Shown: positions 1,943 through 26,548 of the stretch, piece by piece
Layout: the number at the start of each line of letters is the position of its first letter
How positions within the stretch are numbered: position 1 is the stretch's first letter
Origin: an uncultured Candidatus Saccharibacteria bacterium
GTDB lineage: Bacteria > Patescibacteriota > Minisyncoccia > Phycocordibacterales > SBAW01
Assembly (NCBI GenBank): GCA_964615415.1
Contig: CAZTNI010000002.1
Span: 190,745 to 254,744, forward strand
Reading direction: 5' to 3'
Length of the DNA: 64,000 nucleotides
Notes under the pieces: model-generated
Database searches by the model: none
What the model saw: the letters and a program-made list of their open reading frames with translations, nothing else
What the model was told of the DNA's origin: nothing
Position numbers and translations under genes: made by a program

Positions 1943-4903
1943 ATGAAGGGTGCTTACGATCACAAAAAGATCGAAAAGAAGTGGCAAAAAGTCTGGGAAG
2001 ACACTGCTGCATTTACAGCCTCAAACGACTCTACAAAAGAAAAGCACTACGTCCTCGACATGTTTCCGTATCCTTCTGGAAGCGGGCTCCATGTGGGCCA
2101 TGTTGAGGGGTACACCGCAACCGACATTTACAGTCGCTACAAGCGCATGCGGGGTTATAACGTGCTCCACCCGATGGGTTGGGACGCATTTGGCTTGCCG
2201 GCGGAAAACTATGCTATTAAAACTGGCGTTGCGCCGCAAAAAACGACCGACGATGCTATAGAAAATTTTCGTAAGCAAATTAAGTCGCTCGGACTTTCCT
2301 ACGACTGGTCACGCGAGGTGGGCACGCACACGCCCGAGTACTACAAGTGGACGCAGTGGTTCTTTTTAACACTCTACAAAAACGGCTTTGCGGAAAAGCG
2401 CATGGCAAAGGTGAATTGGTGCCCAAAGGACCAAACCGTGCTTGCAAACGAACAGACGGTTTCCGAAACTGGCGAGAAGGGTGTCTGTGTTCGCTGTGGT
2501 ACTAAGGTGGTACAGAAAGATCTCTCGCAGTGGTTTTTCAAAATCACAGACTTCGCAGACCAGCTTGTTGATGACTTAGACACGGTCGACTGGCCTGAGT
2601 CGACGAAAATCAACCAGCGCAACTGGATCGGGCGCTCTGAAGGCGCGGAGATAGATTTTACTGTTGCCAGTTCGGGAGAAAAGATAAAAGTATTTACAAC
2701 ACGTCCAGATACCATCTTCGGGGCGACGTACATGGTGCTTGCGCCTGAACACTCTCTTGTCACAGCACTTGCTGATCGTTTGCAAAACAAAGACGAGGTG
2801 TTTGCATACGTCGAGGCAGCAAAAAATAAGACTGACCTGGAGCGCCAAGAAGAGAGTAAAGACAAAACAGGCGTTGAACTGAAAGGAGTTAAGGCGGTTA
2901 ATCCTGCCACTAAAGAGGAGATCCCAGTATTTATTGCCGACTACGTGCTCGGTGGCTACGGCACAGGCGCCATTATGGCCGTACCTGCACACGACGAGCG
3001 CGACTTTGCCTTTGCAAAGAAATTTAACTTGCCGATCAAATATGTCGTGCTTCCAAAACGCATTGATGAGCGCAATCCGCATCAGCCGGGAAAAGAGCTG
3101 GTTTTTAGAAAGGTAATATCAGGCATCATCCGCAACCCTAAAACCGGTAAATATTTGGTATTGAACTGGAAGCAGCAGCCATGGACCACATTTGTTGTGG
3201 GCGGTATGGAAGAGGGAGAAACTCCGGAAGAAGCTGCACGCCGAGAAATTGCCGAAGAAACAGGTTATAAAAACTTAAAGCTTGTTCGTGTAATGGGCGG
3301 CCCGACGTATGCGGAATACTACGCTGCCCATAAAGGAGTAAACCGTAACGTGCACAATTGGCTAGTATTGTTTGAGCTTGAGAATGAAGAGAAAGATGAA
3401 CTCTCTGCAGAGGAGGCCGCAATGCACGAACTTGAGTGGGTAGATCTCTCTACCATTACCCGCGACCGCATGGCCCACGCAGAGCTAGACATCATGCTTG
3501 AGCGTATCCAATCTGCAACAAATGATTTGTATACTCGACCAGGTATTTTGATAGATTCAGGGGCGTTTTCAGGCCTCGATTCCGAAGACGCAAAGAAAAA
3601 AATCACTGAAGCAGTGGGTGGAAAGATGGTAAAGACCTATCGCTTGCGCGACTGGCTTATTTCTCGCCAGCGTTACTGGGGTGCTCCTATACCGGTTGTG
3701 TACGACCCTGAAGGGAAGCCACATCCAGTACCGGAGGAACACTTGCCTTGGCTCTTACCAACAGACGTCGACTACCTGCCACACGGCACTTCGCCGCTTG
3801 CAACATCGAAAGAGTTGCTTGAGCGCACGGAAAAGATTTTTGGTAAGGGGTGGAAGCCCGAGGCAGATACTATGGATACATTTGTATGCTCGTCGTGGTA
3901 CTTCTTCCGCTTTGCCGACCCGCACAATAAAGATGCTTTTTCAGGCAGAGAGGCTCTTAAGAAATGGATGCCGGTAGACCTTTACATGGGAGGCGCTGAA
4001 CACACGGTGCTGCACCTTATGTATGCTCGTTTCTTTACCAAAGTGCTGCAAAAGTTAGGGTATATCAATTTTACAGAGCCGTTTACTAAGCTGCGTCACC
4101 AGGGACTTATTTTGGCAGAGGATGGCAGCAAGATGTCGAAGTCGAAGGGTAACGTTATTAACCCTGACGACGTAGTGGATACGTTTGGGGCAGACTCTGT
4201 GCGCATGTACGAGATGTTTATGGGTCCGCTTGAGGCACAAAAACCATGGAGTACATCGAGCATCATGGGCGTACGACGCTTCCTTGAACGCGCGTGGAAG
4301 TACACTACAGAAATATGGTTAGAAAATTATATTAAAGATATTAAAGAAAATCCTCAGAATGCGATTGAATATGAAAAAAATGGCTGGAATCCTAAGTTAG
4401 AGAATGAACTTCAGGCGCTGATTTTGAAAGTGACTAACGACATTGAGAGTTTAAAGTTCAACACAGCGTTGTCGGCTTTAATGATCTATCTCAATCTTGT
4501 TTACGAAGAAACCAAACTTCGAACTTATTCTGGCACAGAAGCGACAATGTCTAAGTCAACACAAATGACTAAAGGTCAGTTAGAAACATTTATAAAACTC
4601 CTTAGTCCTTTCGCCCCCCATATTGCCGCCGAAATGTGGGAAAGTATTGGTAATACCAGTCATGTATGGGCCGAAACTTGGCCAGTTGCCGATGCTTCAA
4701 AACTTGCTTCAGCTATGGTTACTATAGCCGTACAGGTAAACGGCAAAATGCGCGCCACTATTGAAATCCCTGCCGACATGAGCGAAGAAGAGGCTCTAAA
4801 GACAGCTCGTTCGAACGAGCAAGTGGCGAAGTGGATTGGACAAGGGAAGGAAAAAAGGGCAGTATACGTGCCAAGTAAGATCATCAGTTTCGTTGTGGAA
4901 TAG
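1943..4903 (+). CDS. leuS: Leucyl-tRNA synthetase carrying an inserted NUDIX hydrolase domain after the CP1 editing domain
   Basis: HIGH motif HVGHVEGY and KMSKS motif KMSKSKGN. Editing-domain motif TTRPDTIFGATYMVLAPEH. Conserved RLRDWLISRQRYWGAPIP. 986 aa versus about 860 typical. Extra ~140 aa contain a perfect Nudix box GGMEEGETPEEAARREIAEETGY. Confidence 0.95.
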   Translation: MKGAYDHKKIEKKWQKVWEDTAAFTASNDSTKEKHYVLDMFPYPSGSGLHVGHVEGYTATDIYSRYKRMRGYNVLHPMGWDAFGLPAENYAIKTGVAPQKTTDDAIENFRKQIKSLGLSYDWSREVGTHTPEYYKWTQWFFLTLYKNGFAEKRMAKVNWCPKDQTVLANEQTVSETGEKGVCVRCGTKVVQKDLSQWFFKITDFADQLVDDLDTVDWPESTKINQRNWIGRSEGAEIDFTVASSGEKIKVFTTRPDTIFGATYMVLAPEHSLVTALADRLQNKDEVFAYVEAAKNKTDLERQEESKDKTGVELKGVKAVNPATKEEIPVFIADYVLGGYGTGAIMAVPAHDERDFAFAKKFNLPIKYVVLPKRIDERNPHQPGKELVFRKVISGIIRNPKTGKYLVLNWKQQPWTTFVVGGMEEGETPEEAARREIAEETGYKNLKLVRVMGGPTYAEYYAAHKGVNRNVHNWLVLFELENEEKDELSAEEAAMHELEWVDLSTITRDRMAHAELDIMLERIQSATNDLYTRPGILIDSGAFSGLDSEDAKKKITEAVGGKMVKTYRLRDWLISRQRYWGAPIPVVYDPEGKPHPVPEEHLPWLLPTDVDYLPHGTSPLATSKELLERTEKIFGKGWKPEADTMDTFVCSSWYFFRFADPHNKDAFSGREALKKWMPVDLYMGGAEHTVLHLMYARFFTKVLQKLGYINFTEPFTKLRHQGLILAEDGSKMSKSKGNVINPDDVVDTFGADSVRMYEMFMGPLEAQKPWSTSSIMGVRRFLERAWKYTTEIWLENYIKDIKENPQNAIEYEKNGWNPKLENELQALILKVTNDIESLKFNTALSALMIYLNLVYEETKLRTYSGTEATMSKSTQMTKGQLETFIKLLSPFAPHIAAEMWESIGNTSHVWAETWPVADASKLASAMVTIAVQVNGKMRATIEIPADMSEEEALKTARSNEQVAKWIGQGKEKRAVYVPSKIISFVVE

Positions 4904-10367: not shown

Positions 10368-11204
10368 ATGACAGTACTTGTTGCAAAGGCAGACGGCACA
10401 AACGAACAATTTGACCCACAAAAACTACGTGCTTCGCTGCATCGCGCTGGAGCAGATGGGCAAGCGGCGGAAACTATTGCAAAGGAAGTGGAAGGAGAGT
10501 TGTGGGACGGAATTACTACGGGAGAAATCTATGCTCGTGCGTTTGCTCGTCTGCGAGAACATCGGCGCGGAGTTGCTGCTCGCTACTCACTTAAAAGAGC
10601 GGTACTCGACTTCGGTCCATCGGGGTTTCCTTTCGAATCCTATATTGCTGAACTTTTTAAACAAGAAGGATACGCGGCAAAAGTAGACCAAATTATTGAG
10701 GGAGCCTGTGTCGAACACGAAGTAGATGTCGTACTGACCAAGCCAGGAAAGACTATACTTGTTGAAGCGAAATTTCATAACACCGCTGGGTTTAAAACTG
10801 ACCTTAAGACCGTTTTGTATGTACAGGCTCGTATTGAAGACATTGCGGCGGCGCAACGAGCAAAAGGGGAAGAGGGTATTGTTGAAGGTATGGTGGTCAC
10901 TAATACAAAATTCACTTCAAAAGCGGTTCAATATGCCTCGTGCAAAGGGCTCGGGCTTGTAGGATGGGACCATCCGCACATTGGCACTTTACAAGAACGT
11001 ATTGAGAAGGCGGGGTTATACCCTGTAACTGCTCTTACCTCGCTATCTGCAAGAGAGAAAGCTGCTTTACTTGCGGAACGCATCGTGCTCTGCAATGCAC
11101 TTCCAGATGCTGGCGAGGCGTTGCGGCGAGCGGGTGTTTCGGGGAAAAAAGCCGATACGGTGCTTGAAGAAGTGGGAGCATTGTGTAAACCAGTTACCGA
11201 GTAG
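10368..11204 (+). CDS. ATP-cone domain fused to an Mrr-type PD-(D/E)XK restriction endonuclease domain
   Basis: N-terminal ~85 aa VAKADGTNEQFDPQKLRASLHRAG...ETIAKEVEGEL fits the ATP-cone. Middle: FESYIAELFKQEGY...EHEVDVVLTKPGKTILVEAKFHN...VVTNTKFTSKA fits the Mrr_cat D...ExK core. Confidence 0.75.
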   Translation: MTVLVAKADGTNEQFDPQKLRASLHRAGADGQAAETIAKEVEGELWDGITTGEIYARAFARLREHRRGVAARYSLKRAVLDFGPSGFPFESYIAELFKQEGYAAKVDQIIEGACVEHEVDVVLTKPGKTILVEAKFHNTAGFKTDLKTVLYVQARIEDIAAAQRAKGEEGIVEGMVVTNTKFTSKAVQYASCKGLGLVGWDHPHIGTLQERIEKAGLYPVTALTSLSAREKAALLAERIVLCNALPDAGEALRRAGVSGKKADTVLEEVGALCKPVTE

Positions 11205-13381: not shown

Positions 13382-13634
13382 CAAAGTCTACGCGGTAGTA
13401 GCCACAATTCCTGCAGGGCAGACCATGACCTATAAAGAAGTGGCAAAAGCTGCAGGGAGTCCGCGCGCGTTCCGCGCAGTAGGGAATATTTTAAATAAAA
13501 ATTATAACCCCGCAATTCCGTGTCACCGCGTTGTGCGATCGGATGGAGCAACCGGCGGATACAACCGTGGCGCTCTGCGCAAAAAAGAATTGTTGACAGC
13601 AGAGCGCGAGGGGAGTAGAGTCGCGGTGCAATGA
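13350..13634 (+). CDS. ogt: Methylated-DNA-protein-cysteine methyltransferase (MGMT/Ogt) DNA-binding and active-site domain
   Basis: VYAVVATIPAGQTMTYKEVAKAAGSPRAFRAVGNILNKN...IPCHRVV with the PCHR active-site motif. Short single-domain form. Confidence 0.8.
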   Translation: MNKTKQDSFSNKVYAVVATIPAGQTMTYKEVAKAAGSPRAFRAVGNILNKNYNPAIPCHRVVRSDGATGGYNRGALRKKELLTAEREGSRVAVQ

Positions 13635-14104
13635 AGCGACGCGGTTTTACCCTTATCGAAATCCTTATTGTTATAGGCATTATTGCCGTTTTAGCAGCAA
13701 TTGTGATTATTGCCATTAACCCGGCAAAGCAATTTGCACAGGCGCGCAACACGCAACGCGAGTCAAATATAAACGCTATTTTAAATGCAATAGGACAGCG
13801 CATGGCTGACAACAAAGGCGTATTTCAAGGAACATTTACAGGGGGAGAGGGGGTGGTGTCGTGTCCAGAACTTCCTACCGCAACATCAACCATTTTCTCT
13901 GGAAGTGCTGTAAGTGGTGGCACAGATCTTTCTTGCTTAGTGCCTACCTACCTACCGTCATTCCCAGTCGATCCAGTTCTCGCAACCGGTAACGACACGG
14001 GCTATACTGTGCGTATAGACCAAGTTGGCAGAGTCTCGGTCTGCGCTCCAGGAGCAGACGAGGCAGCACTGCCGGACAGCAGTGCCATTTGTGTAAAAAG
14101 ATAA
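13631..14104 (+). CDS. Type IV pilin/pseudopilin-like protein with a prepilin N-terminal methylation motif
   Basis: MKRRGFTLIEILIVIGIIAVLAAIVIIAI contains the G|FTLIE prepilin cleavage motif. Four Cys in the C-terminal domain. ATGA overlap with the ogt stop. Confidence 0.85.
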   Translation: MKRRGFTLIEILIVIGIIAVLAAIVIIAINPAKQFAQARNTQRESNINAILNAIGQRMADNKGVFQGTFTGGEGVVSCPELPTATSTIFSGSAVSGGTDLSCLVPTYLPSFPVDPVLATGNDTGYTVRIDQVGRVSVCAPGADEAALPDSSAICVKR

Positions 14105-15984: not shown

Positions 15985-16207
15985 ACGAGTCTTTCCTTCT
16001 ATAACTGTGGATCTACAAAGTACAGCCAGACGGCAGTATACCAGACAACACTATGTAAATAAAGTGAAGAGAGCGGAGGAGGTTTCCGCACCGCTTTTCT
16101 CTGTGGTCTAATTAGCAAATCTCAAAAAGGCACTGTCAATTTTGACATCTCATCTCAAGCGTATATCGTGTAGGCCAGTCTCCCGTTATCAGATTTACTT
16201 TTTTGCT

Positions 16208-17053
16208 ATGACGCTGTCACTTGTTGTACGAAATGTGGTCTCAGTTCTAGTGCTGCTCGCGGGCTTGCTTTCGGTACTAAGCTTTACAAGCATCGCACAG
16301 GCTTCTATGGCCGGTGATATTAACTGTGAAATTGGCGGCATACTCGACCAACACAATCTCCCAGGTCCATCAGGTTGTGATAACGAGGAAGAAACGTCAC
16401 CCACAGACCTTTGTCCAAACGACACAGGTATTCAGACAACAACCCCATGTCCATCTGACACCAATAGCGGCGGTGATGGCGAAAACAATGGTGGCACGAA
16501 CGAAGGTAATACAGAAGGCAATACCAACGGAGGCTCACAGGGTGACACGTCTTCAAACACTACTACAGTGGGTGGCGGTGCAGCACAGCCAAACGGCGGC
16601 GGCATTGCGCCAGACGTAACGGGTGGAGGCAGTACTACCAGCAGCACGTCAACTCCTTCAAGCGGAACAGTACTTGGTACGAGCACCGTTGCAACTTCCA
16701 CAGAAACTACTCCGACTATTCCATCGACAACCATTTGTGACGGGCAGATCCCATACCTCACCTCTTATATGCGCATGGGTCAGCAAAATAATGCAGCGGA
16801 GGTAATGAAGCTCCAGACATTCCTCAACCTACACCTTAACCTTTCTCTTCCTGTAACAGGCTTCTTTGGTCAAATGACTCATGATGCAGTGCAGGTCTTC
16901 CAGCTTAAACATTCCAAAGATGTGCTACTTCCATGGGTAGCATACGGTTTACCGAATGAAAGTACTTCAACAGGATACGTATATAAAACAACCCAGCGCA
17001 TGATCAATAATCTTGCATGCGCAATGGAACTTCCGGTTCCTCAGTTGCCGTAA
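16208..17053 (+). CDS. Secreted G/T/S/N-rich low-complexity protein with a C-terminal peptidoglycan-binding (PG_binding_1-like) domain
   Basis: Signal peptide MTLSLVVRNVVSVLVLLAGLLSVLSFTSIAQA. C-terminal LQTFLNLHLNLSLPVTGFFGQMTHDAVQVFQ fits PG_binding_1. Start moved to the ATG at 16208. Confidence 0.65.
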   Translation: MTLSLVVRNVVSVLVLLAGLLSVLSFTSIAQASMAGDINCEIGGILDQHNLPGPSGCDNEEETSPTDLCPNDTGIQTTTPCPSDTNSGGDGENNGGTNEGNTEGNTNGGSQGDTSSNTTTVGGGAAQPNGGGIAPDVTGGGSTTSSTSTPSSGTVLGTSTVATSTETTPTIPSTTICDGQIPYLTSYMRMGQQNNAAEVMKLQTFLNLHLNLSLPVTGFFGQMTHDAVQVFQLKHSKDVLLPWVAYGLPNESTSTGYVYKTTQRMINNLACAMELPVPQLP

Positions 17054-17299
17054 AACCAATCTCGGATTCTTGTACGGATCCGAGACGGGCCCAAAAATCT
17101 CCAGCTTTCCGCTGGTTTCCCAGGGTTTTGGGCCCCTCTCAGCTCCGTACGTCCTCTTCGTAGTATAGCAATCGCGGAAGCAAAAAAATCTGCGATTTTT
17201 TATTTATTTTTACACGCACACATCTTCACTCGCACACAAAGGTGTGCTCCTGTGGACAAAATTCATTGACTCTTCAATTGAATGCTCGATAATAGTGCG

Positions 17300-17413
17300 T
17301 AAGGGAAACCAGCGGCCGACATACATGTCTGCTGTTGTTACAGTTGTAAAACAGAATACATTGCGGAATTGAAGCGAAATGCGCATGGCGTGTTTCGCGT
17401 TTTTTGTTTTTTG
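17300..17413 (+). ncRNA. Candidate small RNA or terminated leader: putative promoter TTGACT-16-GATAAT, then about 110 nt ending in an intrinsic terminator
   Basis: -35 at 17265-17270 and -10 at 17287-17292. Hairpin GCGAAATGCGCatgGCGTGTTTCGC followed by GTTTTTTGTTTTTTG at 17374-17413. No + strand CDS ends nearby. Confidence 0.25.
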
Positions 17414-17601
17414 AGAAAACAAACAACGGTAAAGCTCACAGTTAGGCTCGCATAGAGGCGAGTCTTGCTGTGAGCTGTACCTGTAAAGGTGCAGCTCACG
17501 GGACAGGTCGAGTCCCTCTAACATCACGCTCGCCGTACGGAAGCGGGATGAATGGAAGAAAAACATTATTCATTACTAAAAGTAATTACTTAACGAACGA
17601 T

Positions 17602-18381
17602 ATGAAGAAAATTAACTTCGCTGTTGCAGCTGCAACGACTGTCGCTATGCTTTCTGCGGCAACTCCTGCACTCGCATGGAACGGCGGATGGAACTGGAAT
17701 CAGGATGAGAGCGACACAACGATCTCAAACACAAGCACTATCACTGTTTCTAATGTAAACACTGCAGCAGTTACGAATGGCACTGTTGCTGTTTCTAACA
17801 CTGGCGGTAACCAAGCAGTTGGTGGCGAGGGTGCAGAAGGTGGTGATGCAGAGTCTACTGGCGAGGATGCTAATGCAGAAGGCGGAAATGGCGGTAAAGG
17901 CGGAAATGCAGGCGTACAGACCGGCGTAGCAGTATCATCAGCAGGCACTATGAACATGGTCAACACCAACACTGTTGAGGTTGAAGTTGAGGACTGCGGT
18001 TGCGCAGCTGGCGACCTCGAGGACGAGGGTGACACGACTATCACCAACACTGACACTGTCGCTGTTGGTAATGCAAACACAGGTGTTGTTACGAACTTCA
18101 CTATTGCACTTTCAAACACTGGTCTCAACGGCGCACAGGGTGGCGCAGGTGAGGAAGGTGGCGAAGCTACTGCAGAGGGTGAAGAGGACAACAACGGTGG
18201 TTGGGGCTGGTGGAACTGGCACCATGGCAACGACAACGATGACGAAGGTTCTGCTAACGCAGAGGGCGGCAACGGTAATAATGGTGGCGATGCTGTCATT
18301 ATCTCAGGTGACGCAGGCTCAGAGGCAGGCACAATCAACGTTGTTAACACCAACTTTGTTCGTGTAATAAAGGGTTTCTAA
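17602..18381 (+). CDS. Secreted repeat protein. Two ~125-aa repeats carrying the 'NTxxVTN...SNTG...GG(D/E)A...VNTN' motif family.
   Basis: Signal peptide MKKINFAVAAATTVAMLSAATPALA. Repeats TTISNTSTITVSNVNTAAVTNGTVAVSNTGGNQAVGG and TTITNTDTVAVGNANTGVVTNFTIALSNTGLNGAQGG. MNMVNTNTVEV and INVVNTNFVRV. Confidence 0.7.
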   Translation: MKKINFAVAAATTVAMLSAATPALAWNGGWNWNQDESDTTISNTSTITVSNVNTAAVTNGTVAVSNTGGNQAVGGEGAEGGDAESTGEDANAEGGNGGKGGNAGVQTGVAVSSAGTMNMVNTNTVEVEVEDCGCAAGDLEDEGDTTITNTDTVAVGNANTGVVTNFTIALSNTGLNGAQGGAGEEGGEATAEGEEDNNGGWGWWNWHHGNDNDDEGSANAEGGNGNNGGDAVIISGDAGSEAGTINVVNTNFVRVIKGF

Positions 18382-18491
18382 TCAAACCCTGAGCAAGAAG
18401 GGAGGCAACTCCCTCCTTCTCATGAGGTCTTCTTAACACTGGGAGGCTTCAGAGAGGGAATACCGATTTACAAGCTGACTTTATTGGACGT

Positions 18492-21464
18492 ATGACTGAA
18501 CACACACACTTACTTGGGCGACGTGCGATAGTACTTTCGCTCATAGTATCGATGATGCTCTCGAGCTTTGCCCCTGCTTTTTTCGCACATGCAGAAGAAG
18601 AGGCAATACCTCCACAAACAGAAACTATCCCTGAATCTCCTGCGACTGAAACCACCACAGAAGAGCAGACCACCTCTCCTGAAATCACTGTAGAAGATCA
18701 GATTACCTCTCCTGAAACTACCTCCACTCAATCACAAGAAGAAACGACTCAAACAACCCTCTCTGATACTCAGCCAACTACAACTCCTGAGACCCCTGAA
18801 AATCAGGGCGACGCCGTCGTAGACACGGGAGATGCTGCTGCACTTACTGATGCACAAAATACCACCAACACAAACACAGTGGACGTGACTGCAGACACCG
18901 CAACCACAACCATCACTAACACCAATACTGCAAGTACCACCAACGAAGCGGCAGCAGCTGCCTCAACAGGAGACAATACCGCAGCAGGAGGTTCTGCAAC
19001 TGTTACCACAGGAGATGCAATCGCATCAGCAAATGTCATCAACGTTGTTAACACAAACATCATCAACTCGCCGGGCATATTAGCCTTCTTTAATATGCTC
19101 TTTGGTGGCGGATTCGACCTGCGTGGCTTCGACCTTTCTTACTTCTTTGGTGGAGGAGACACCTCAACTACTGGGACCCAAAACAATTGCTCGCTTCTTT
19201 CTTGTGCAAGCGACGAAGGCACACTGCTTGTGTCTAACACCAACGACGCGACTGTAACCAATACGGTGTTGGTGCGTTCAAACACAGGTAGCAATACCGC
19301 TTCTTCAACTGGCGAGGGCGATGCTTCTGTCACTACCGGCGATGCATACGCCTCTGCAAACGTATTCAATTTGGTAAATACCAATCTTATCAACTCAAAC
19401 TATCTCCTTGTTGCACTGAACAACTTTGGCGACATGTTTGGAGACATTACGCTCCCTGGCGCAAGCTTCTTTGAAACATTAATGGGAGGTTCAGGTGCCA
19501 CCAACACATCCATCAACAACAGCAACACTGCTACCGTCACTAACAACACTGCTGCAACTGCAGACAGTGGCAATAACACTGCAACTGGCGGCACGGGAGG
19601 AGATGCTGTAGTCACTACCGGCGACGCGCACTCTGCGGCATCTACCTACAATCAAGTGAATACCAACATGGTGGGCGGGAGTACGGTCTTTTTCCTCATA
19701 AACATTTTTGGTGACTGGGCAGGCAATGTACAAGGCCTTCCAGAAGGGATGACATGGACTCGCACGCCAACAGGTATTGCTCTTATGAATGAAAGTGGGG
19801 GAGGCGGCACAGTAACTGAATCCCTCTCAACCCTAGGCGTTTCCAATACCAATACAGCAAACGTAACAAACAACGTGCAGGCATGGGCATTGACCGGCGC
19901 AAACAAAGCAGAGAGTACTGGTGACGGCGACGCAGACATTGAAACAGGTGATGCATACGCGTCAACAAACGTGGTCAACATGGTGAACACAAACGTTATT
20001 GGTAAAAATTGGATCTTTGCCATCTTTAACATATTTGGCAACTGGAGCGGCAATTTGTCTTTCGGCAAACCTGACTTGTGGATCGGTGCAGTTGCAGAAA
20101 CTCCTAATCCAACACTGCCTGGCTCTGCGATGAAGTACCACTTTACCGTCTCGAACCGCGGCGACGCAGATGCAACAGGAGTAAAACTTAAGGCAGAATT
20201 CCTAAAAACGCTCATCAAGTTTAATGAGGGCAACCCGATCGACGCTGGTATGCAGTGGGACCTTGGCACTATCAAAAAAGGAGAGACAAGGGAATTTGTC
20301 TACAGCGCAAACGCAGGCCTTATCCCTGACGGCACCACTGCTTCAGCCGACCTCACCGCTTCTGTTTCCAGCGCCGAAACGGACAACAATAGCATCGACA
20401 ATACTGAAAAACTGTCTGTATTGGTCCAGAGTCCTATTCAGACAACAGGAAGCGCACCTATAGGCAAATGGACCACTGATCCACACCTGCAGATGACTAA
20501 AAAAGTGAGCGTTGCAACAACTACAGTTCCTGCCAGTGTCGACTACGAAGTAACGATCCGCAATACGGGCGGTGCTGCATACAACGTAACGCTTACCGAC
20601 ACACTTACCGATCCCAAGGGAGGCACGGTGTACAAGCGCGCATGGAAACTCAACACTATTGGTGAAAACGAAGAGATCTCTCTCACCTATTCAGTAGAAT
20701 ACAAAGGAGACCTTCCGCTCGGTAAGTATAAAAATACTGCGCAGCTTAAAGGCCAGAAGGGTAATTCTTCGGCTGTGTATGCCGTCGACATGCAGAAGGT
20801 GACCGCTAATGCAACAATTGAACTTGTTGCTGGTGGAGAAGTGCTTGGTGCAGCAACTTCAAAAGTTGCAGCCCCAGCGCCAGCGTGCGCAGCATTCATC
20901 ACTTCATACATCTCACCAAACGGGACCAATAGCTCTGTCCAGGTACGCCGACTTCAATACTTCCTCCGCGACTTCCAGAACGAACTTCTTACGCCAAACG
21001 GTATATATGACGAGGCAACCATTGAAGCTGTAAAACGCTTCCAGGAAAAATACGCCGGAGATGTACTTATGCCATGGGGTATGTCGGACCCAAGCGGCGT
21101 CGTGTACTACACAACACAACAAAAAATTAACGAGCTGTACTGCCAGGGTATGAAAAAGTTCCCCCTCTCAAAAACTCAACAGCAACACATCTTCGCGTAT
21201 GCTCAAAAAAATGTACCGCTCGCCACAGCTCCTGCAACCACAACTCAAAAGTGGTCAGATGCTATTGAACAGTTCTTTGTAACGCAGCCTGTGTCCCCGG
21301 CAGTATTGCTTCCTGTACCAAAAGTAGCTACGCCGGATGTACAAGAGAGCACATCTGTTGGATTCTTTGGATTTAACCTTGGATTCTTCTCACTATTTAG
21401 TAAACTGTTTGCACTGTCGCCCCTGTACTTCGACATTCCTCACGCAGAGGCAGCAGGTAAGTAA
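18492..21464 (+). CDS. Large 990-aa surface protein: four VNTN/TTGDA repeats, a DUF11-like region, a C-terminal PG_binding_1-like domain and a hydrophobic tail
   Basis: Repeats such as VTTGDAIASANVINVVNTNIINS, VTTGDAYASANVFNLVNTNLINS, VTTGDAHSAASTYNQVNTNMVGG, IETGDAYASTNVVNMVNTNVIGK. DUF11-like KYHFTVSNRGDADATGVKL and YEVTIRNTGGAAYNVTLTDTL. PG-binding VQVRRLQYFLRDFQNELLTPNGIYDEATIEAVKRFQEKY. Confidence 0.8.
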   Translation: MTEHTHLLGRRAIVLSLIVSMMLSSFAPAFFAHAEEEAIPPQTETIPESPATETTTEEQTTSPEITVEDQITSPETTSTQSQEETTQTTLSDTQPTTTPETPENQGDAVVDTGDAAALTDAQNTTNTNTVDVTADTATTTITNTNTASTTNEAAAAASTGDNTAAGGSATVTTGDAIASANVINVVNTNIINSPGILAFFNMLFGGGFDLRGFDLSYFFGGGDTSTTGTQNNCSLLSCASDEGTLLVSNTNDATVTNTVLVRSNTGSNTASSTGEGDASVTTGDAYASANVFNLVNTNLINSNYLLVALNNFGDMFGDITLPGASFFETLMGGSGATNTSINNSNTATVTNNTAATADSGNNTATGGTGGDAVVTTGDAHSAASTYNQVNTNMVGGSTVFFLINIFGDWAGNVQGLPEGMTWTRTPTGIALMNESGGGGTVTESLSTLGVSNTNTANVTNNVQAWALTGANKAESTGDGDADIETGDAYASTNVVNMVNTNVIGKNWIFAIFNIFGNWSGNLSFGKPDLWIGAVAETPNPTLPGSAMKYHFTVSNRGDADATGVKLKAEFLKTLIKFNEGNPIDAGMQWDLGTIKKGETREFVYSANAGLIPDGTTASADLTASVSSAETDNNSIDNTEKLSVLVQSPIQTTGSAPIGKWTTDPHLQMTKKVSVATTTVPASVDYEVTIRNTGGAAYNVTLTDTLTDPKGGTVYKRAWKLNTIGENEEISLTYSVEYKGDLPLGKYKNTAQLKGQKGNSSAVYAVDMQKVTANATIELVAGGEVLGAATSKVAAPAPACAAFITSYISPNGTNSSVQVRRLQYFLRDFQNELLTPNGIYDEATIEAVKRFQEKYAGDVLMPWGMSDPSGVVYYTTQQKINELYCQGMKKFPLSKTQQQHIFAYAQKNVPLATAPATTTQKWSDAIEQFFVTQPVSPAVLLPVPKVATPDVQESTSVGFFGFNLGFFSLFSKLFALSPLYFDIPHAEAAGK

Positions 21465-21466
21465 CC

Positions 21467-21919
21467 ATGGATACGCTTGGAAGCTTTATCACGGGATTGG
21501 TCATTTCAGCCACCGCTTCAGCAACTGCAGTGACTGGAGGAGCGCATGCTACAGGGGGAGAGCAGGTTACAACCGGAGACAGTTATAGTTCAGTACGAGT
21601 AGAAAATGTTATACACGCAACGAACGGAGGAGGCACGTCGTATACAAAAGTAGAAACAAACACCAACGGACACATTCAGACCGAGGAAAAAACGGAAACA
21701 TTTCCTCCCAGTTCTCACAGTTCAGTGCGAGTTCATGTAGCAACGTCTACTATTGCAAGCACTACAAAGTTGGTGGCAAGCTCTTCAGTTACGCTCGATG
21801 TAATAAGTACTACTGCGTCTTCGTCATCTACTGAGACGCAGAACCTACGAGCACGAATTGCAGAACGAGTTGCAAAGTTATTTGGACAGATATGGGGTTG
21901 GTTTTCATTTACACGGTAA
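21467..21919 (+). CDS. Small secreted protein sharing the TTGD-x-YSS...NV...TNGG motif with the two upstream repeat proteins
   Basis: Starts 3 nt after the upstream stop. GGEQVTTGDSYSSVRVENVIHATNGGG echoes the repeat core. Confidence 0.55.
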   Translation: MDTLGSFITGLVISATASATAVTGGAHATGGEQVTTGDSYSSVRVENVIHATNGGGTSYTKVETNTNGHIQTEEKTETFPPSSHSSVRVHVATSTIASTTKLVASSSVTLDVISTTASSSSTETQNLRARIAERVAKLFGQIWGWFSFTR

Positions 21920-21939
21920 TTACTCACACAACTTCAGAT

Positions 21940-24198
21940 ATGGATCGTAAAAAGATTTTTTCCGGTTTGACCGCGCTCGCACTTACAGTCACCTGTTTTA
22001 CATCAACACCTGCACACGCTGCAGGTCCTAACCTCATACAAAACCCTTCCTTTGAAACCGGAAGCGACGCAACTGCTACTAACTGGACTACGAACAGTTT
22101 TGGTTCAAGTACCGTCGCGTTTAGCATTTCGACCAGTTCAGTACACACTGGTGTGCGTGCTGCCACAATAGACGTCAGCAACTACACCAATGGCGACGCA
22201 AAATGGGTGCACGAACCAGTTACTGTTACTCCAGGCAGCTACTACACAATGAGTTTGTGGTACAAGTCGAGTGTTCAAAGTGCGCTGTACGCCCGCTACA
22301 ACAATAGTGACGTCGATGGCACATCAACAGGATTTCACTGGCTTGCAGACATACCTGCAAGTGACGCATGGACCGAGTACACCGGCAGCATAACTATTCC
22401 TGCAGGTGTAACAGCGATTCAACTTATCCAAACACTAGAGAGTAACGGTTCACTTACTATCGACGATTATTCTCTGACACTCGAAGAAGCACCTACGTTT
22501 AGCGAAGGGCGCGTCACATTTACCTTTGATGATGGTTGGCAGTCTATTTACGACAATGCCCGCCCTATTCTAAACGCAGCCGGAATTCGCACTACTCAGT
22601 ACGTTTACAGTGATGCAATGAACCAGGTGCACGGTCCTATTTACATGACTGCACCAGAACTACTAGAAATGCAGGCAGAGGGTCACGATATTGATGCCCA
22701 CTCTCGCTCACACGCAGACCTCACCACACTCAGCGGATCAGCACTCACGAATGAGATAGGAGGGTCACGCTCAGACCTTATCGCAGCAGGATTCTCTCCT
22801 GTAGACTCATACGCATACCCGTATGGCGCCTACAACAGCGACATACGACAACAAATGATTGACGCTGGTTTTCTTGGAGCACGCACCGTAGACGAAGGCT
22901 ACAATTACGCAGACTCTGACAAGTACACCCTTAAAATTCAGCATGTCACTAACACCACTTCAGCCAGCACCATTAAAGGCTGGATTGATACTGCGCGCAG
23001 CGAAAAATCATGGCTCATTTTGATGTTCCATGAAATTAGAACCGCATCGACAACTTGTGCTGGTGATGATGTAACGGAATGTGCTACTACGGACGTGCTT
23101 CAAGAAGTCGCTTCCTATGTAACTGCGCCTGCCACAGAGATCTGTATACTCACCATGTCCGAAGCGCTCAACAATGTGGCATGTGGCTCGACATCGACCC
23201 CAACAAATCAGGCACCTGTTGTGGCAAATCCAATTCCAGATCAAGACGCCACAGAGGATACATTGTTTAGCCACACCTTCTCGCCAGACACGTTTACCGA
23301 TGCAGACAACGATCCTCTGACCTACACCGCAACAACGCCCCTATGGCTTTCGTTTGACGCGTCTACCCGCACCTTTACCGGCACACCAACAAATGCTGAC
23401 GTAGGAATTCACGCCGTAACAGTTACCGCCACAGACACTACCAATGCTTCAACCACCGACTCATTTACTGTGACTGTTGCAAACAGTAATGGCGCTCCGA
23501 CTATTGCTACAGCAGCATTCAGTATTCCTGAAAATAGTGTGACAGGCACTGTGGTAGGGACCACCACTGCGAACGATAGCGACACAGGCGATACGCTTAC
23601 CTACGAGATAGTGTCCGGAAACACCAGTGGTGCATTTTCTCTCGATGCTACAACTGGCACAATTACCGTTGCACAGTCTTCAGCACTCGACTTTGAAACT
23701 TCTCCCGCGTTCACGTTGGTTATCAAGGTAACCGACAGCAGCAGTCTGTCGGCACAAGCTACAACAACCATTACTCTTACCGATGTTGCAGAAAATACTC
23801 CTAACCCAGACCCTACACCAACTCCACAACCATCCTCTGGCGGGGGCAACGGAGGAGGCGGAGGAGGAGGTGTCGTGCTTGGCCTTATTGGACAGGTAGT
23901 AACCAACCTCAACAATACTGTTCCCACTATCACAACCAACGGAGTTGTGCTCGGTACATCGACACAAAACTTCCTCTTTACAAAACCTCTATATTGGGGT
24001 ATGTATGGAGAGGACGTCGTAGAGCTTCATAAAATCCTTATTTCGCAAGGGTATTTGAAGATCTCTGCGCCAACAGGTTACTTCGGTCCGTTAACGTTTG
24101 CAGCAGTAAAACTGTATCAGCAAGCGCACGGGATCGACATGGTCGGCGTGGTAGGTCCTATTACACGGGCCTCCCTTAACAGTTCTTTCGGTCAATAA
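21940..24198 (+). CDS. Secreted multidomain protein: CBM-like beta-sandwich, CE4 polysaccharide deacetylase (NodB) domain, two cadherin/dystroglycan-like Ig domains, P/T and poly-Gly linker, C-terminal PG_binding_1-like domain
   Basis: Signal peptide. NodB motifs TFTFDDGW, HSRSHADL, AYPYGAY. CADG-like ...DADNDPLTYTATTPLWLSFDASTRTFTGTP. Cadherin-like ...DSDTGDTLTYEIVSGNTSGAFSLDATTGTITV. PG-binding YGEDVVELHKILISQGYL...FGPLTFAAVKLYQ. Confidence 0.8.
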   Translation: MDRKKIFSGLTALALTVTCFTSTPAHAAGPNLIQNPSFETGSDATATNWTTNSFGSSTVAFSISTSSVHTGVRAATIDVSNYTNGDAKWVHEPVTVTPGSYYTMSLWYKSSVQSALYARYNNSDVDGTSTGFHWLADIPASDAWTEYTGSITIPAGVTAIQLIQTLESNGSLTIDDYSLTLEEAPTFSEGRVTFTFDDGWQSIYDNARPILNAAGIRTTQYVYSDAMNQVHGPIYMTAPELLEMQAEGHDIDAHSRSHADLTTLSGSALTNEIGGSRSDLIAAGFSPVDSYAYPYGAYNSDIRQQMIDAGFLGARTVDEGYNYADSDKYTLKIQHVTNTTSASTIKGWIDTARSEKSWLILMFHEIRTASTTCAGDDVTECATTDVLQEVASYVTAPATEICILTMSEALNNVACGSTSTPTNQAPVVANPIPDQDATEDTLFSHTFSPDTFTDADNDPLTYTATTPLWLSFDASTRTFTGTPTNADVGIHAVTVTATDTTNASTTDSFTVTVANSNGAPTIATAAFSIPENSVTGTVVGTTTANDSDTGDTLTYEIVSGNTSGAFSLDATTGTITVAQSSALDFETSPAFTLVIKVTDSSSLSAQATTTITLTDVAENTPNPDPTPTPQPSSGGGNGGGGGGGVVLGLIGQVVTNLNNTVPTITTNGVVLGTSTQNFLFTKPLYWGMYGEDVVELHKILISQGYLKISAPTGYFGPLTFAAVKLYQQAHGIDMVGVVGPITRASLNSSFGQ

Positions 24199-24213
24199 AC
24201 AGGAGAAAGTTGG

Positions 24214-24441
24214 ATGCATGACGAGGCCAACAACGTCCAGGAGGTATTTGCTCCGGACGAACTCGAGCCTGGACGGCTCCCGGGGACCCAGCGTCCTACG
24301 CGGGCAGCCCTGAAAAAGAGGGGGGTGGACTTCTACGAAGGTGGAGGCCATAGCCGGGAACCCAATTTTGATTCAGGAATCGGGGGCGGGGGTCGAAAAT
24401 CGAAGTCTTTCGACCCTTCATTTGGCCAACCCAAAACCTAA
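24214..24441 (+). CDS. Possible small Gly-rich disordered protein. Low confidence; may be non-coding.
   Basis: AGGAGA Shine-Dalgarno 8 nt upstream of the ATG. Strong terminator immediately downstream. Sequence is low-complexity (GGGHS...GIGGGGRKSK). Confidence 0.2.
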   Translation: MHDEANNVQEVFAPDELEPGRLPGTQRPTRAALKKRGVDFYEGGGHSREPNFDSGIGGGGRKSKSFDPSFGQPKT

Positions 24442-24450
24442 ATCACACAC

Positions 24451-24482
24451 GACGCGCATACCCTGCGCGTCGTTTTCTTTTG
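24451..24482 (+). terminator. Rho-independent terminator
   Basis: GACGCGCAtacccTGCGCGTCgttttctttt. 8-bp GC stem plus T-run. Confidence 0.7.
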
Positions 24483-24595: not shown

Positions 24596-26548
24596 ATGGT
24601 GGGAAGAATGTATGGAAGTATTGTATACGTAGCATTTATTAGTCTTTTGTACTGTCTATCCCTGCCAGTAGCATCTGCAGCACCCAACCTCGTACCAAAT
24701 GGCGACTTTGAGGTAGTGTCAAGCAGCGCTTCTATCCCACAACACTGGACGAGCAACTATTGGGGCTCACTGCGTGCAACATTTACCTACCCAGTAACAG
24801 GAAATCCGGGCAAAGCTGCAAAAGTAACTGTCAGCAATCGAACTTCTGGTGACGCAAAATGGGTATCCCCGGAAGTGCCAGCCGCTCCTGGAGAAAAATA
24901 CATCTATAGCAACACGTATCTATCCAGCATACAGACGGAGGTAACCGTGCAGTTTAAAATGTCGAATGGTTCTTACAAATACGTATGGTTGGGGAGTGTG
25001 CCGGCAAGTTCGAACTGGAAGACGTATAGCGGCACCCTCACGGTGCCAAGCGGAGCAGTTGCATTCACTGTCTTCCACCTTATAAACCGCAACGGCTCTC
25101 TTTCTATCGATAACGTGTCTGTTACAAATTCAGCCTCAACACCTCCGCCTCCTCCGACACCCACCCCAGTACCCACCTGCACACTTACAGCAACTCCTGA
25201 CACTATCGAAAAAGGACAGCAGTCGGTATTGACCTGGACCACACAATACGCCAGCTCAACCTCGATTGATAACGGGGTTATTGCTACCGCAACGACAAGC
25301 GGTTCCGCAAACGTCTCTCCATCATCAACAACACTCTACACATTGCACGCTACGGGCGCAGGCGGCACAGTCCAGTGCACCAAAACAGTGACGGTGACCG
25401 ACCCTGTGCCACCACCACCGCCACCAACTAACAACCTTATCAACAACGGTGATCTTGAAACAGCGTCCAGTAACGCGTCATTGCCGGTGGGATGGAACAC
25501 CAATTATTGGGGTTCGTTGCGAGCCACTTTTTCATACCCAAGCACAGGTGCTAGTGGAGGAAAAGCAGCAAAAGTAACGGTTGCAAACTATCAATCCGGT
25601 GATGCTAAGTGGTGGTTTACTCATATTCCCGCATCAAGCAACACGTTGTACCGTTACACCAACACATATACCGCAACAGCACCTTCCAACATAACGGTTG
25701 AATTTAAGATGCAAGATGGCAGCCACCAGTACATGTGGCTCTCTGACGCACCCGCTCAAAGCAGCTGGACGCCATTTACCGCGCAAATTACCGTGCCCGC
25801 AGGCGCAGTATCATTTACCGTGTTCCACTCGCTCGCACGAAATGGCTCACTTACGATCGACAATGTCTCAGTAACTGCCTTGTCACAGAGTTCATTCGCA
25901 GAGCCTATGGTTTCCTTTGTGTTCGATGACGCACTTGCAAGTCAATACAGCAACGCACGATCAATTCTTAATACCGCTGGTTTCAAAGGAGTATTCTCGG
26001 TCATTACGCAGTTTGCAGGCAGCGCTCCGTACATGACATGGAACAATCTCACCACTCTTAAAAACGAAGGTCACGAAGTGAATAGTCATACGCGCACTCA
26101 TGCAGACTTAACCACTCTTGCTGCAGCCAGTCTCCAGAGCGAAATACAAGGCTCATATGACGACCTTATTGCGCGCGGATTTGCTCCTAAAACACTCGTA
26201 TATCCGTACGGAGGCACAAGTCCTGCAGTGAAACAAGTAGTGCAAGATGCTGGGTATCTGGGCGCACGCGGGAGCTACTATGGGTTTAATGCGCCAGTGA
26301 CCGACCGTTATGCACTCTACGATATCCGTCTTGATAAAACCTCCACACTCAGTGGCACAAAAGCAGTTATAGACCAAGTAATTGCAAACAAGCGCTGGCT
26401 CGTATTTGAACTTCACGATATCTTGCCAAGCGGCGGCGATGAATACACCATTACGCCAACACTCCTACAATCAATCGTGTCGTATCTTAAAGAAAAAGGG
26501 GTAAAAGTAGTGACGCTTGAAGAGGGGGTAGGGCTTATGACGCCGTAG
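24596..26548 (+). CDS. Secreted protein with two tandem CBM-like beta-sandwich domains and a CE4 polysaccharide deacetylase domain. Paralog of the N-terminal half of the 21940 gene.
   Basis: Repeated PNLVPNGDFE.../NLINNGDLE...WxxNYWGSLRATF(T/S)YP modules. NodB motifs FVFDDALAS, HTRTHADL, VYPYGG. Confidence 0.8.
   Translation: MVGRMYGSIVYVAFISLLYCLSLPVASAAPNLVPNGDFEVVSSSASIPQHWTSNYWGSLRATFTYPVTGNPGKAAKVTVSNRTSGDAKWVSPEVPAAPGEKYIYSNTYLSSIQTEVTVQFKMSNGSYKYVWLGSVPASSNWKTYSGTLTVPSGAVAFTVFHLINRNGSLSIDNVSVTNSASTPPPPPTPTPVPTCTLTATPDTIEKGQQSVLTWTTQYASSTSIDNGVIATATTSGSANVSPSSTTLYTLHATGAGGTVQCTKTVTVTDPVPPPPPPTNNLINNGDLETASSNASLPVGWNTNYWGSLRATFSYPSTGASGGKAAKVTVANYQSGDAKWWFTHIPASSNTLYRYTNTYTATAPSNITVEFKMQDGSHQYMWLSDAPAQSSWTPFTAQITVPAGAVSFTVFHSLARNGSLTIDNVSVTALSQSSFAEPMVSFVFDDALASQYSNARSILNTAGFKGVFSVITQFAGSAPYMTWNNLTTLKNEGHEVNSHTRTHADLTTLAAASLQSEIQGSYDDLIARGFAPKTLVYPYGGTSPAVKQVVQDAGYLGARGSYYGFNAPVTDRYALYDIRLDKTSTLSGTKAVIDQVIANKRWLVFELHDILPSGGDEYTITPTLLQSIVSYLKEKGVKVVTLEEGVGLMTP

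Follow-up and report, generated by a model that had tools for sequence, protein, structure and literature searches.

Fibrillar adhesins with stalks of immunoglobulin-like (Ig-like) CLIPPER domains, such as B9T28_05395 of Acinetobacter silvestris, are one of the described systems with which the locus reported here can be compared. A CLIPPER domain has been solved by crystallography (9IFR), and its isopeptide bond between K715 and N806 confers thermal and protease stability (10.1101/2025.04.25.650565). The present locus consists of three consecutive genes, P1, P2 and P3, in a 64-kb window (the whole stretch of DNA that was analyzed; 64,000 nucleotides of contig CAZTNI010000002.1, from an uncultured Candidatus Saccharibacteria bacterium of the class Minisyncoccia), and the product of P2 joins two CLIPPER domains to a repeat module of a new family. 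Paceibacteria and Parcubacteria are among the most abundant uncultivated bacteria and are thought to be attached to other cells. To our knowledge, their envelope proteins are almost wholly unannotated. We favor, with moderate confidence, the reading that P1-P2-P3 is a surface cassette of the Paceibacteria, in which P2 has a head, a stalk and an anchor and P1 and P3 are partners whose repeats are compatible with the rungs of the P2 head.

The initial annotation had proposed three consecutive genes here, and these are real and conserved. Genes called independently on a public contig of identical sequence have the same three lengths, 259, 990 and 150 amino acids.

17602-18381, + strand: open reading frame (ORF) P1, a Gly/Asn-rich secreted protein of 259 residues with two repeat units.
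18492-21464, + strand: ORF P2, a surface protein of 990 residues with head, stalk and anchor.
21467-21919, + strand: ORF P3, a protein of 150 residues with half a repeat unit.

P1 and P2 are separated by 110 nt and P2 and P3 by 2 nt, and no terminator-like hairpin was found between the three genes on the + strand from 17401 to 24449. Synteny was analyzed at 86 related loci. In 71 of the 77 loci that extend far enough upstream, the P2-like gene is preceded on its own strand, at a distance of no more than 2.5 kb, by a P1-like gene, whose product has 220-430 residues and two to four matches to the repeat unit. A P3-like gene immediately follows P2 in 22 loci and separates P1 from P2 in 23, and of the 70 loci for which both flanks are available, 40 contain one or more such genes. 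The conserved synteny, the short gaps and the hairpin-free interval together argue that P1-P2-P3 is a conserved cassette and that its genes are probably co-transcribed.

P1, P2 and P3 have in common a repeat of about 80 residues, with the consensus V.N.N.A.V.N...V.A.TG.N.A....G.A.I.TGDA.A.ANV.N.VNTN..G.N.....FN.FG...G...LP. Gly20, Asn22, Gly37 and Asn50 are invariant in an alignment of all 42 units. TTGDA-type motifs occur in P2 at residues 172, 281, 375 and 484, and VNTN occurs at residues 186, 295, 389 and 498 of P2 and at 120 and 248 of P1; the corresponding motif in P3 is VTTGDSYSSVRVENV. A hidden Markov model (HMM) of the unit was derived from 169 copies in 43 homologues of P2. Of all 606 stop-to-stop ORFs in the window that encode 50 residues or more, it matched only three: P2 at E 1.9e-113 overall, with the four full domains at 1e-26 to 1e-31 and the half unit at the N-terminus at 8e-4, P1 at E 1.9e-11, and P3 at E 5e-4. 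Profile-profile alignment with hhalign agrees, relating the unit to the P1 family with 97.6% probability (E 2.7e-12) and to the P3 family with 93.4% probability (E 2.5e-7). The homology of the three proteins seen by the initial annotation therefore stands, with adjustments to the details: its four copies in P2 are full units to which an overlooked N-terminal half unit has to be added, the two units of P1 are split by inserts, and P3 has only half a unit. The hydrophobic segment that was said to follow each unit, the terminal FN.FG strand, is confined to the units of P2.

No family for the repeat was found when P1-P3 were scanned against Pfam (2025 copy), NCBIfam 20 and PHROGs; the initial annotation, too, had been unable to match it to a named family. 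Scanning the 42 units individually, and the 16 P1 homologues, against Pfam likewise gave no repeat family and only scattered spurious matches, RRM_5 in two of the 42 units being judged one of these. Searches of PDB sequences with whole-family and unit profiles, at E up to 10, returned nothing for the repeat, and literature searches on the motif strings, and on S-layer or surface proteins of Parcubacteria and the candidate phyla radiation (CPR), returned nothing relevant. The repeat family is new; the overall class of protein, wall-anchored surface protein, is already known.

The skewed composition of the three proteins (Asn, Thr, Ala, Gly, Ser and Val make up 63-71%), and the long antisense ORFs that overlap the region, might suggest that P1-P3 are chance frames within low-complexity or repetitive DNA. 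DNA identity between the repeat cores is just 63-77%, and a long tandem array is absent. The repeats are old and maintained by selection at the protein level, neither recent duplications nor assembly artefacts. Thousands of homologues keep the domain order, the invariant residues and the synteny, more than 1,000 clusters at 50% identity conserve the proteins, and the AlphaFold2 (AF2) models are confident. The probability that the ORFs are artefacts is as good as negligible, this reading having already been refuted by conservation.

The initial annotation had proposed a search with an HMM of the repeat. Run exhaustively with HMMER over 1.84 billion sequences, each representing a cluster at 50% identity, the unit profile revealed the size of the family: 3,085 matches at E ≤1e-3, 2,011 at ≤1e-10 and 1,026 at ≤1e-30. 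The best 150 of the 3,085 have five matched stretches per protein in 127 cases, four in 11, six in 11 and nine in one. In a separate search of a collection of 5.8 billion proteins, 441 of 8,000 candidates scored matched P2. The 120 matches listed are 35-73% identical to P2, apart from one identical sequence, are mostly about 800-1,100 residues long (range 702-1,261), and are annotated just as 'hypothetical' or 'peptidoglycan-binding protein'; their sources are Paceibacterota, Kaiserbacteria, Parcubacteria and Minisyncoccia. Across GTDB, with one genome for each of 185,579 species, 178 relatives were found, and all 80 loci kept from these are from Patescibacteria, which bears out the proposal that the repeat is lineage-specific. 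The 80 loci belong to Kaiser-, Adler-, Nomura-, Zambryski- and Taylorbacteria, Paceibacterota, Parcubacteria and Elulimicrobium, and include bulk-submitted metagenome-assembled genomes titled 'uncultured Candidatus Saccharibacteria'. No relative was found in the IMG/VR viral contigs scanned. One Parcubacteria protein (P0254, MBI4127555.1) has at least nine units and neither CLIPPER nor peptidoglycan-binding (PG-binding) domains.

The domains of P2 are listed below; pLDDT is the predicted local distance difference test score of the AF2 models.

Start of 18492-18797, + strand: signal peptide, residues 1-34 (..FFAHA/EEE), from sequence.
Within 18492-18797, + strand: N-terminal extension, residues 35-102, disordered, acidic and rich in Thr, Glu and Pro (pLDDT ~30).
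18801-20075, + strand: head, residues 104-528, made up of R0 and R1-R4, HMM domains.
18801-18896, + strand: R0, half unit, residues 104-135, from the HMM.
18903-19136, + strand: R1, full unit, from the HMM.
19230-19481, + strand: R2, full unit, from the HMM.
19512-19766, + strand: R3, full unit, from the HMM.
19839-20075, + strand: R4, full unit, from the HMM.
20073-20417, + strand: CLIPPER/DUF11 Ig-like domain 1, residues 528-642 (PF01345, E 1.3e-13; β-sandwich in the AF2 model, pLDDT >90).
20469-20831, + strand: CLIPPER/DUF11 Ig-like domain 2, residues 660-780, with the triad K670/D703/N748.
20883-21149, + strand: PG_binding_1 domain (PF01471), residues 798-886, flanked by invariant C799 and C884.
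21219-21461, + strand: C-terminal region, low-confidence and predicted to be disordered (pLDDT <50), with a Phe-rich hydrophobic segment at about residues 955-975.

The extension that precedes the head is 32% Thr, 21% Glu and 13% Pro. The head was modeled with AF2 (residues 100-531, 107 sequences), and the model was read as confidence values and secondary structure. All 432 residues are in an all-β model with a mean pLDDT of 87 and a predicted template modeling score (pTM) of 0.85, and a model of full-length P2 agrees with it. The four full units have the same pattern of strands, of about 21, 4, 4, 11, 3 and 10 residues. A pTM of 0.85 over 432 residues suggests that the units are packed as one defined body and are not beads on a string. 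A conserved CSLxxC motif (C233/C238) lies between R1 and R2. Conserved residues alternate along the strands, with Asn, Gly, Ala and Thr recurring at the equivalent place in each unit, a pattern that would fit a buried, laddered face and a variable, exposed one. The head is 69% Asn, Thr, Ala, Gly, Ser and Val and only 1% Lys plus Arg, and its isoelectric point is 4.1. The acidic G.GDA loops, together with the Gly/Asp inserts of P1, might point to the involvement of Ca2+. A Foldseek search of the head against the PDB found nothing significant, the best match being FapC at E 0.6. A β-solenoid or β-helix, as guessed in the initial annotation, is the best description of the predicted fold class, although without a specific solved counterpart.

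The head is also the most conserved region of P2. Mean pairwise identity is 47.8% in the head (60% in R4 and 57% in R2) versus 36-41% in the two Ig-like domains; it is 47% in the PG-binding domain and about 20% in the linker and the tail. The proposed fibrous adhesin does not sit well with these data, because the number of units is five in most of the best representatives and the modeled head is a compact module, not an extensible stalk. A host-specific adhesin tip is likewise not what the conservation of the head would lead one to expect. The conservation of the head and its fixed number of units instead favor a constitutive structural or partner-binding role over a diversifying tip for host recognition.

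The DUF11-like domains, the PG-binding domain and the hydrophobic C-terminal tail named in the initial annotation were all recovered in P2, the tail by hydropathy. PF01345 scores 51.7 bits against a gathering cut-off of 24.6 and matches two stretches, of which residues 528-642 are the better; a repeat match to TIGR01451 at residues 670-705 falls under its cut-off. Domain 1 lacks Lys and Asp at the isopeptide positions. In domain 2, K670 and D703 are invariant in 43 homologues and N748 is conserved in at least 90%, and the spacing of 33 residues from Lys to Asp is that of K715/D748 in 9IFR. An isopeptide bond between K670 and N748 is therefore predicted from sequence for this domain. Foldseek of the full P2 model matched tandem Ig-like structures only. 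The PF01471 match is marginal (24.6 bits against a cut-off of 23). PDB sequence matches of this region are weak (E 0.05-0.4) and are to PG-binding modules only, the AF2 model has helices at residues 815-829, 841-853 and 873-883 with pLDDT >90, and C799 and C884 are invariant in the 43 aligned homologues.

The tails of P2 orthologues are nearly always either an amphipathic helix rich in Trp, Phe, Leu, Lys and Arg or a true transmembrane helix followed by basic residues. In two homologues (P0179 and P0195) the head and stalk are retained and the PG-binding domain is replaced by 'ILPYVL', a transmembrane helix and KSRKK, possibly an unrecognized C-terminal sorting signal. No LPXTG-type motif lies near the C-terminus of any of P1-P3; matches to LP.[TSA][GASN] are internal only, at residues 321 and 542. 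None of the tests made tied P1-P3 to sortases or to pili. The Pfam scan of P1-P3 found no SLH or CWB2 domain. Since anchors are interchanged at the C-terminus while the head and stalk stay constant, we infer that the C-terminus of P2 is at the cell and the head is distal.

The features of the two partner proteins are as follows.

P1 residues 1-25, + strand: signal peptide (..TPALA/W), from sequence.
17716-17982, + strand: P1 unit A, residues 39-127, split by an acidic GGxGGxGG-type insert.
P1 residues 132-134, + strand: CGC, invariant, between units A and B.
18037-18363, + strand: P1 unit B, residues 146-254, split by an acidic GGxGGxGG-type insert.
21509-21634, + strand: P3 half unit, residues 15-56, from the HMM and hhalign.
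P3 residues 127-150, + strand: aromatic C-terminal tail (..FGQIWGWFSFTR), preceded by a Ser/Thr-rich middle.

In the alignment of the P1 family the signal peptide ends in TPALA, with P22, A23 and A25 invariant, and the C-terminus is ..VNTNL.RVRR. The inserts of this family are Gly/Asp/Asn-rich, of the GGxGGxGG type and variable in length, and lie between 'TGGN.AGG' and 'V.TGDA'. The half unit of the P3 family reads S.S.TGG..A..GE..TGDS.SSV.V.N.I and is followed by a short conserved β region (..NG....T......V.VATSS), a Ser/Thr-rich spacer and an aromatic tail (FF..FF.F.R) similar to that of P2. P3 homologues, which include P0144-P0147, mostly have a clear signal peptide; the window P3 and its closest relatives begin MD(S/T)L.SFITGL and lack a basic n-region. 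All three proteins had been described as secreted. P1 and P2 have classic signal peptides and invariant Cys pairs of the extracytoplasmic type, which argue for Sec export, whereas P3 of the window has no canonical signal peptide.

These features suggest the following arrangement. P2 would be exported via Sec and retained on the cell through its C-terminal end, where the Cys-stapled PG_binding_1 domain would hold peptidoglycan and the aromatic or amphipathic tail, which is a true transmembrane helix in some orthologues, would be at the membrane. The two CLIPPER domains would form a short, stiff stalk, the second of them locked by the predicted K670-N748 bond, and this stalk would bear the head at the N-terminal end, where four and a half units would stack as the rungs of a single flat β-solenoid. 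The buried face would be made by the conserved positions (Asn, Gly, Ala, Thr and Val), aligned from one rung to the next, and the variable alternate positions would give an acidic, Thr-rich exposed surface that is nearly free of Lys and Arg. We infer that P1, secreted and with two rungs, and P3, with half a rung, dock on the open ends of the solenoid by β pairing and so cap or extend it. The whole would be a constitutive surface structure, an attachment device or coat, and not a fast-evolving, host-specific adhesin. The cassette is probably a core part of the cell surface of Paceibacteria.

Several points weigh against this arrangement. The score of the P2 PG_binding_1 domain is barely over its cut-off, and peptidoglycan binding is a prediction. 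The sequence of the P2 tail is not conserved among homologues. The window P3 has no basic n-region, unlike most P3-like proteins. The predicted head fold is read from AF2 confidence and secondary structure, and the docking of P1 and P3 is drawn solely from shared repeats and adjacency, which co-regulated tandem paralogues would match too.

An S-layer-like coat is an unlikely alternative. P2, with or without P1 and P3, would be abundant and wall-bound and would tile the Paceibacteria envelope, the heads forming a lateral lattice and the PG_binding_1 domain fixing it to the wall. However, neither SLH nor any other domain known to anchor S-layers is present, the similarity to RsaA is weak, and some genomes have two paralogues. 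The paralogues lie 10-15 kb apart on one contig in two cases (L020/L022 on CAZWFX010000002.1 and L031/L061 on CAZELA010000002.1). That wall-anchored P2 nucleates a fiber in the manner of curli or Fap, with P1 polymerizing on the open end into a cross-β filament and P3 as a cap or minor subunit, is distinctly unlikely. In its favor, a small secreted all-repeat protein stands beside a cell-bound one, as CsgA does beside CsgB. Against it, P1-P3 gave no match to the Curlin_rpt HMM (PF07012), no significant structural match to CsgA, and no significant sequence or structure match to FapC. A wider and rather unlikely proposal is that the cassette is either a templated cross-β assembly, an independently arisen analogue of curli and Fap in ultra-small monoderm bacteria in which P2 is a five-rung seed, P1 adds rungs and P3 is a tethered cap or adaptor, or the regular surface layer of Parcubacteria; either would be the main host-contact structure of the cells.

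It is highly improbable that the head is a β-helix enzyme, a lyase, hydrolase or depolymerase of the pectate-lyase or tailspike type that attacks the host cell wall. The matches in this direction were the weakest of those found: there was no pectate-lyase-like HMM match, no strong fold match with catalytic residues, and no glycoside-hydrolase or lyase match in Pfam. The invariant residues are structural (Gly, Asn, Ala, Thr and aromatic), and Asn frequently replaces the Asp of TGDA among homologues. The polysaccharide deacetylase genes next to the cassette, described below, are not conserved over the 86 related loci.

A protein of 303 residues rich in Cys, Gly, Asn and Thr (16142-17053, + strand) is exported and has at its C-terminus the Cys-flanked variant of PG_binding_1 that is also present in P2. 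Because about 20 of the 86 loci encode comparable PG-binding proteins upstream of the cassette, it may belong to the cluster as a fourth, looser member. Between it and P1 are 548 nt of intergenic sequence (17054-17601), with a promoter-like site at 17266-17293 followed by a strong terminator-like hairpin at 17374-17398. This region may act as a leader or attenuator or may encode a small RNA; an Rfam scan gave no family anywhere in the window. P3 is followed on the same strand by two large exported polysaccharide deacetylases with CBM_4_9 (21892-24198 and 24596-26548), joined in the first protein by He_PIG, cadherin and PG_binding_1 domains. Past P3, a terminator-like hairpin is first encountered at 24449-24473. 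Two related loci have SpaA-type (isopeptide pilin-like) proteins and Peptidase_S8 flanking the cassette (L001, 8938-12815; L004, 1065-2252 and 10097-15117), which hints at a wider surface-protein neighborhood in some genomes. The gene for a type IV pilin-like protein, which has the methylation motif PF07963 at its N-terminus (13631-14104, + strand), is 3.5 kb upstream of the cassette. Elsewhere in the window, a leucyl-tRNA synthetase of 986 residues (1943-4903, + strand) has a NUDIX domain (PF00293, residues 389-512, E 5.6e-17) inserted just past the editing domain, an unusual fusion or insertion, and a 278-residue protein (10368-11204, + strand) has an N-terminal ATP-cone (PF03477) and an Mrr_cat restriction-endonuclease domain (PF04471).

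The cassette defines a large family restricted to Patescibacteria, in which two partner genes are conserved, the layout of head, stalk and anchor is clear, the fold is predicted with confidence and the repeat has no counterpart in Pfam, NCBIfam or the PDB. The repeat is a candidate for entry in Pfam as a new family. The proteins are targets for antibodies, metaproteomics, the interpretation of cryo-electron tomography and recombinant structures in the few Paceibacteria co-cultures. The family is thus of value to CPR cell biology, and it would hold a new principle only if the templated-fiber or S-layer reading is true. If P1 does polymerize on P2, this would be a system resembling functional amyloid in a monoderm CPR lineage.

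Compared with described systems, P2 resembles the CLIPPER-stalk fibrillar adhesins in having a signal peptide, an N-terminal functional module, an Ig-like CLIPPER domain with the Lys-Asn isopeptide triad, and a C-terminal envelope anchor. It differs from them in having just two CLIPPER domains, the triad being in one, and no long, variable tandem stalk. Its head is a new module of five units, fixed in number and more conserved than the stalk, and two small proteins that share its repeat are co-encoded with it. Kuroda et al. 2024 (PMC10936435) describe highly expressed PG-binding domain (PGBD) proteins of archaea-parasitizing Paceibacteria. A possible link to these could not be confirmed, and the one gene located in the table of that study, PMX_810_sub_00350 (2,079 nt), is shorter. 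Sortase-anchored proteins are set apart by their LPXTG motif.

The repeats are like those of Pseudomonas FapC (9nqd, 9u4u) and of the Escherichia coli curli subunit CsgA (8enq), being imperfect, rich in Asn, Gly, Ala, Thr and Ser, and with conserved positions that alternate; strand-turn-strand rungs are common to them, and stacking is predicted. The likeness to the right-handed β-helices of SufB/SufD (5awf, 1vh4, 9h78) and to a putative cell-adhesion protein of C. sporogenes (4qrk) is one of fold class only, and SufB/SufD differ in being cytoplasmic Fe-S assembly proteins of unrelated sequence and context, with 7-11% identity over a quarter of the head. RTX β-roll and RsaA-type Ca2+-dependent proteins (6p5t, 2ml1, 7usl) are likewise secreted, acidic, Gly/Asp-rich and built of rolls or solenoids, and the GGxGGDGG inserts of P1 and the G.GDA loops of P2 are superficially similar to them, but the HemolysinCabind HMM (PF00353) had no match and the GGxGGxGG inserts of P1 lack the hydrophobic position. 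P2 is like an anchored surface protein of the Gram-positive type, with a head like the solenoid of a functional amyloid or β-helix, and the cassette is a new repeat and fold family and a new conserved set of three genes inside the familiar class of wall-anchored surface proteins.

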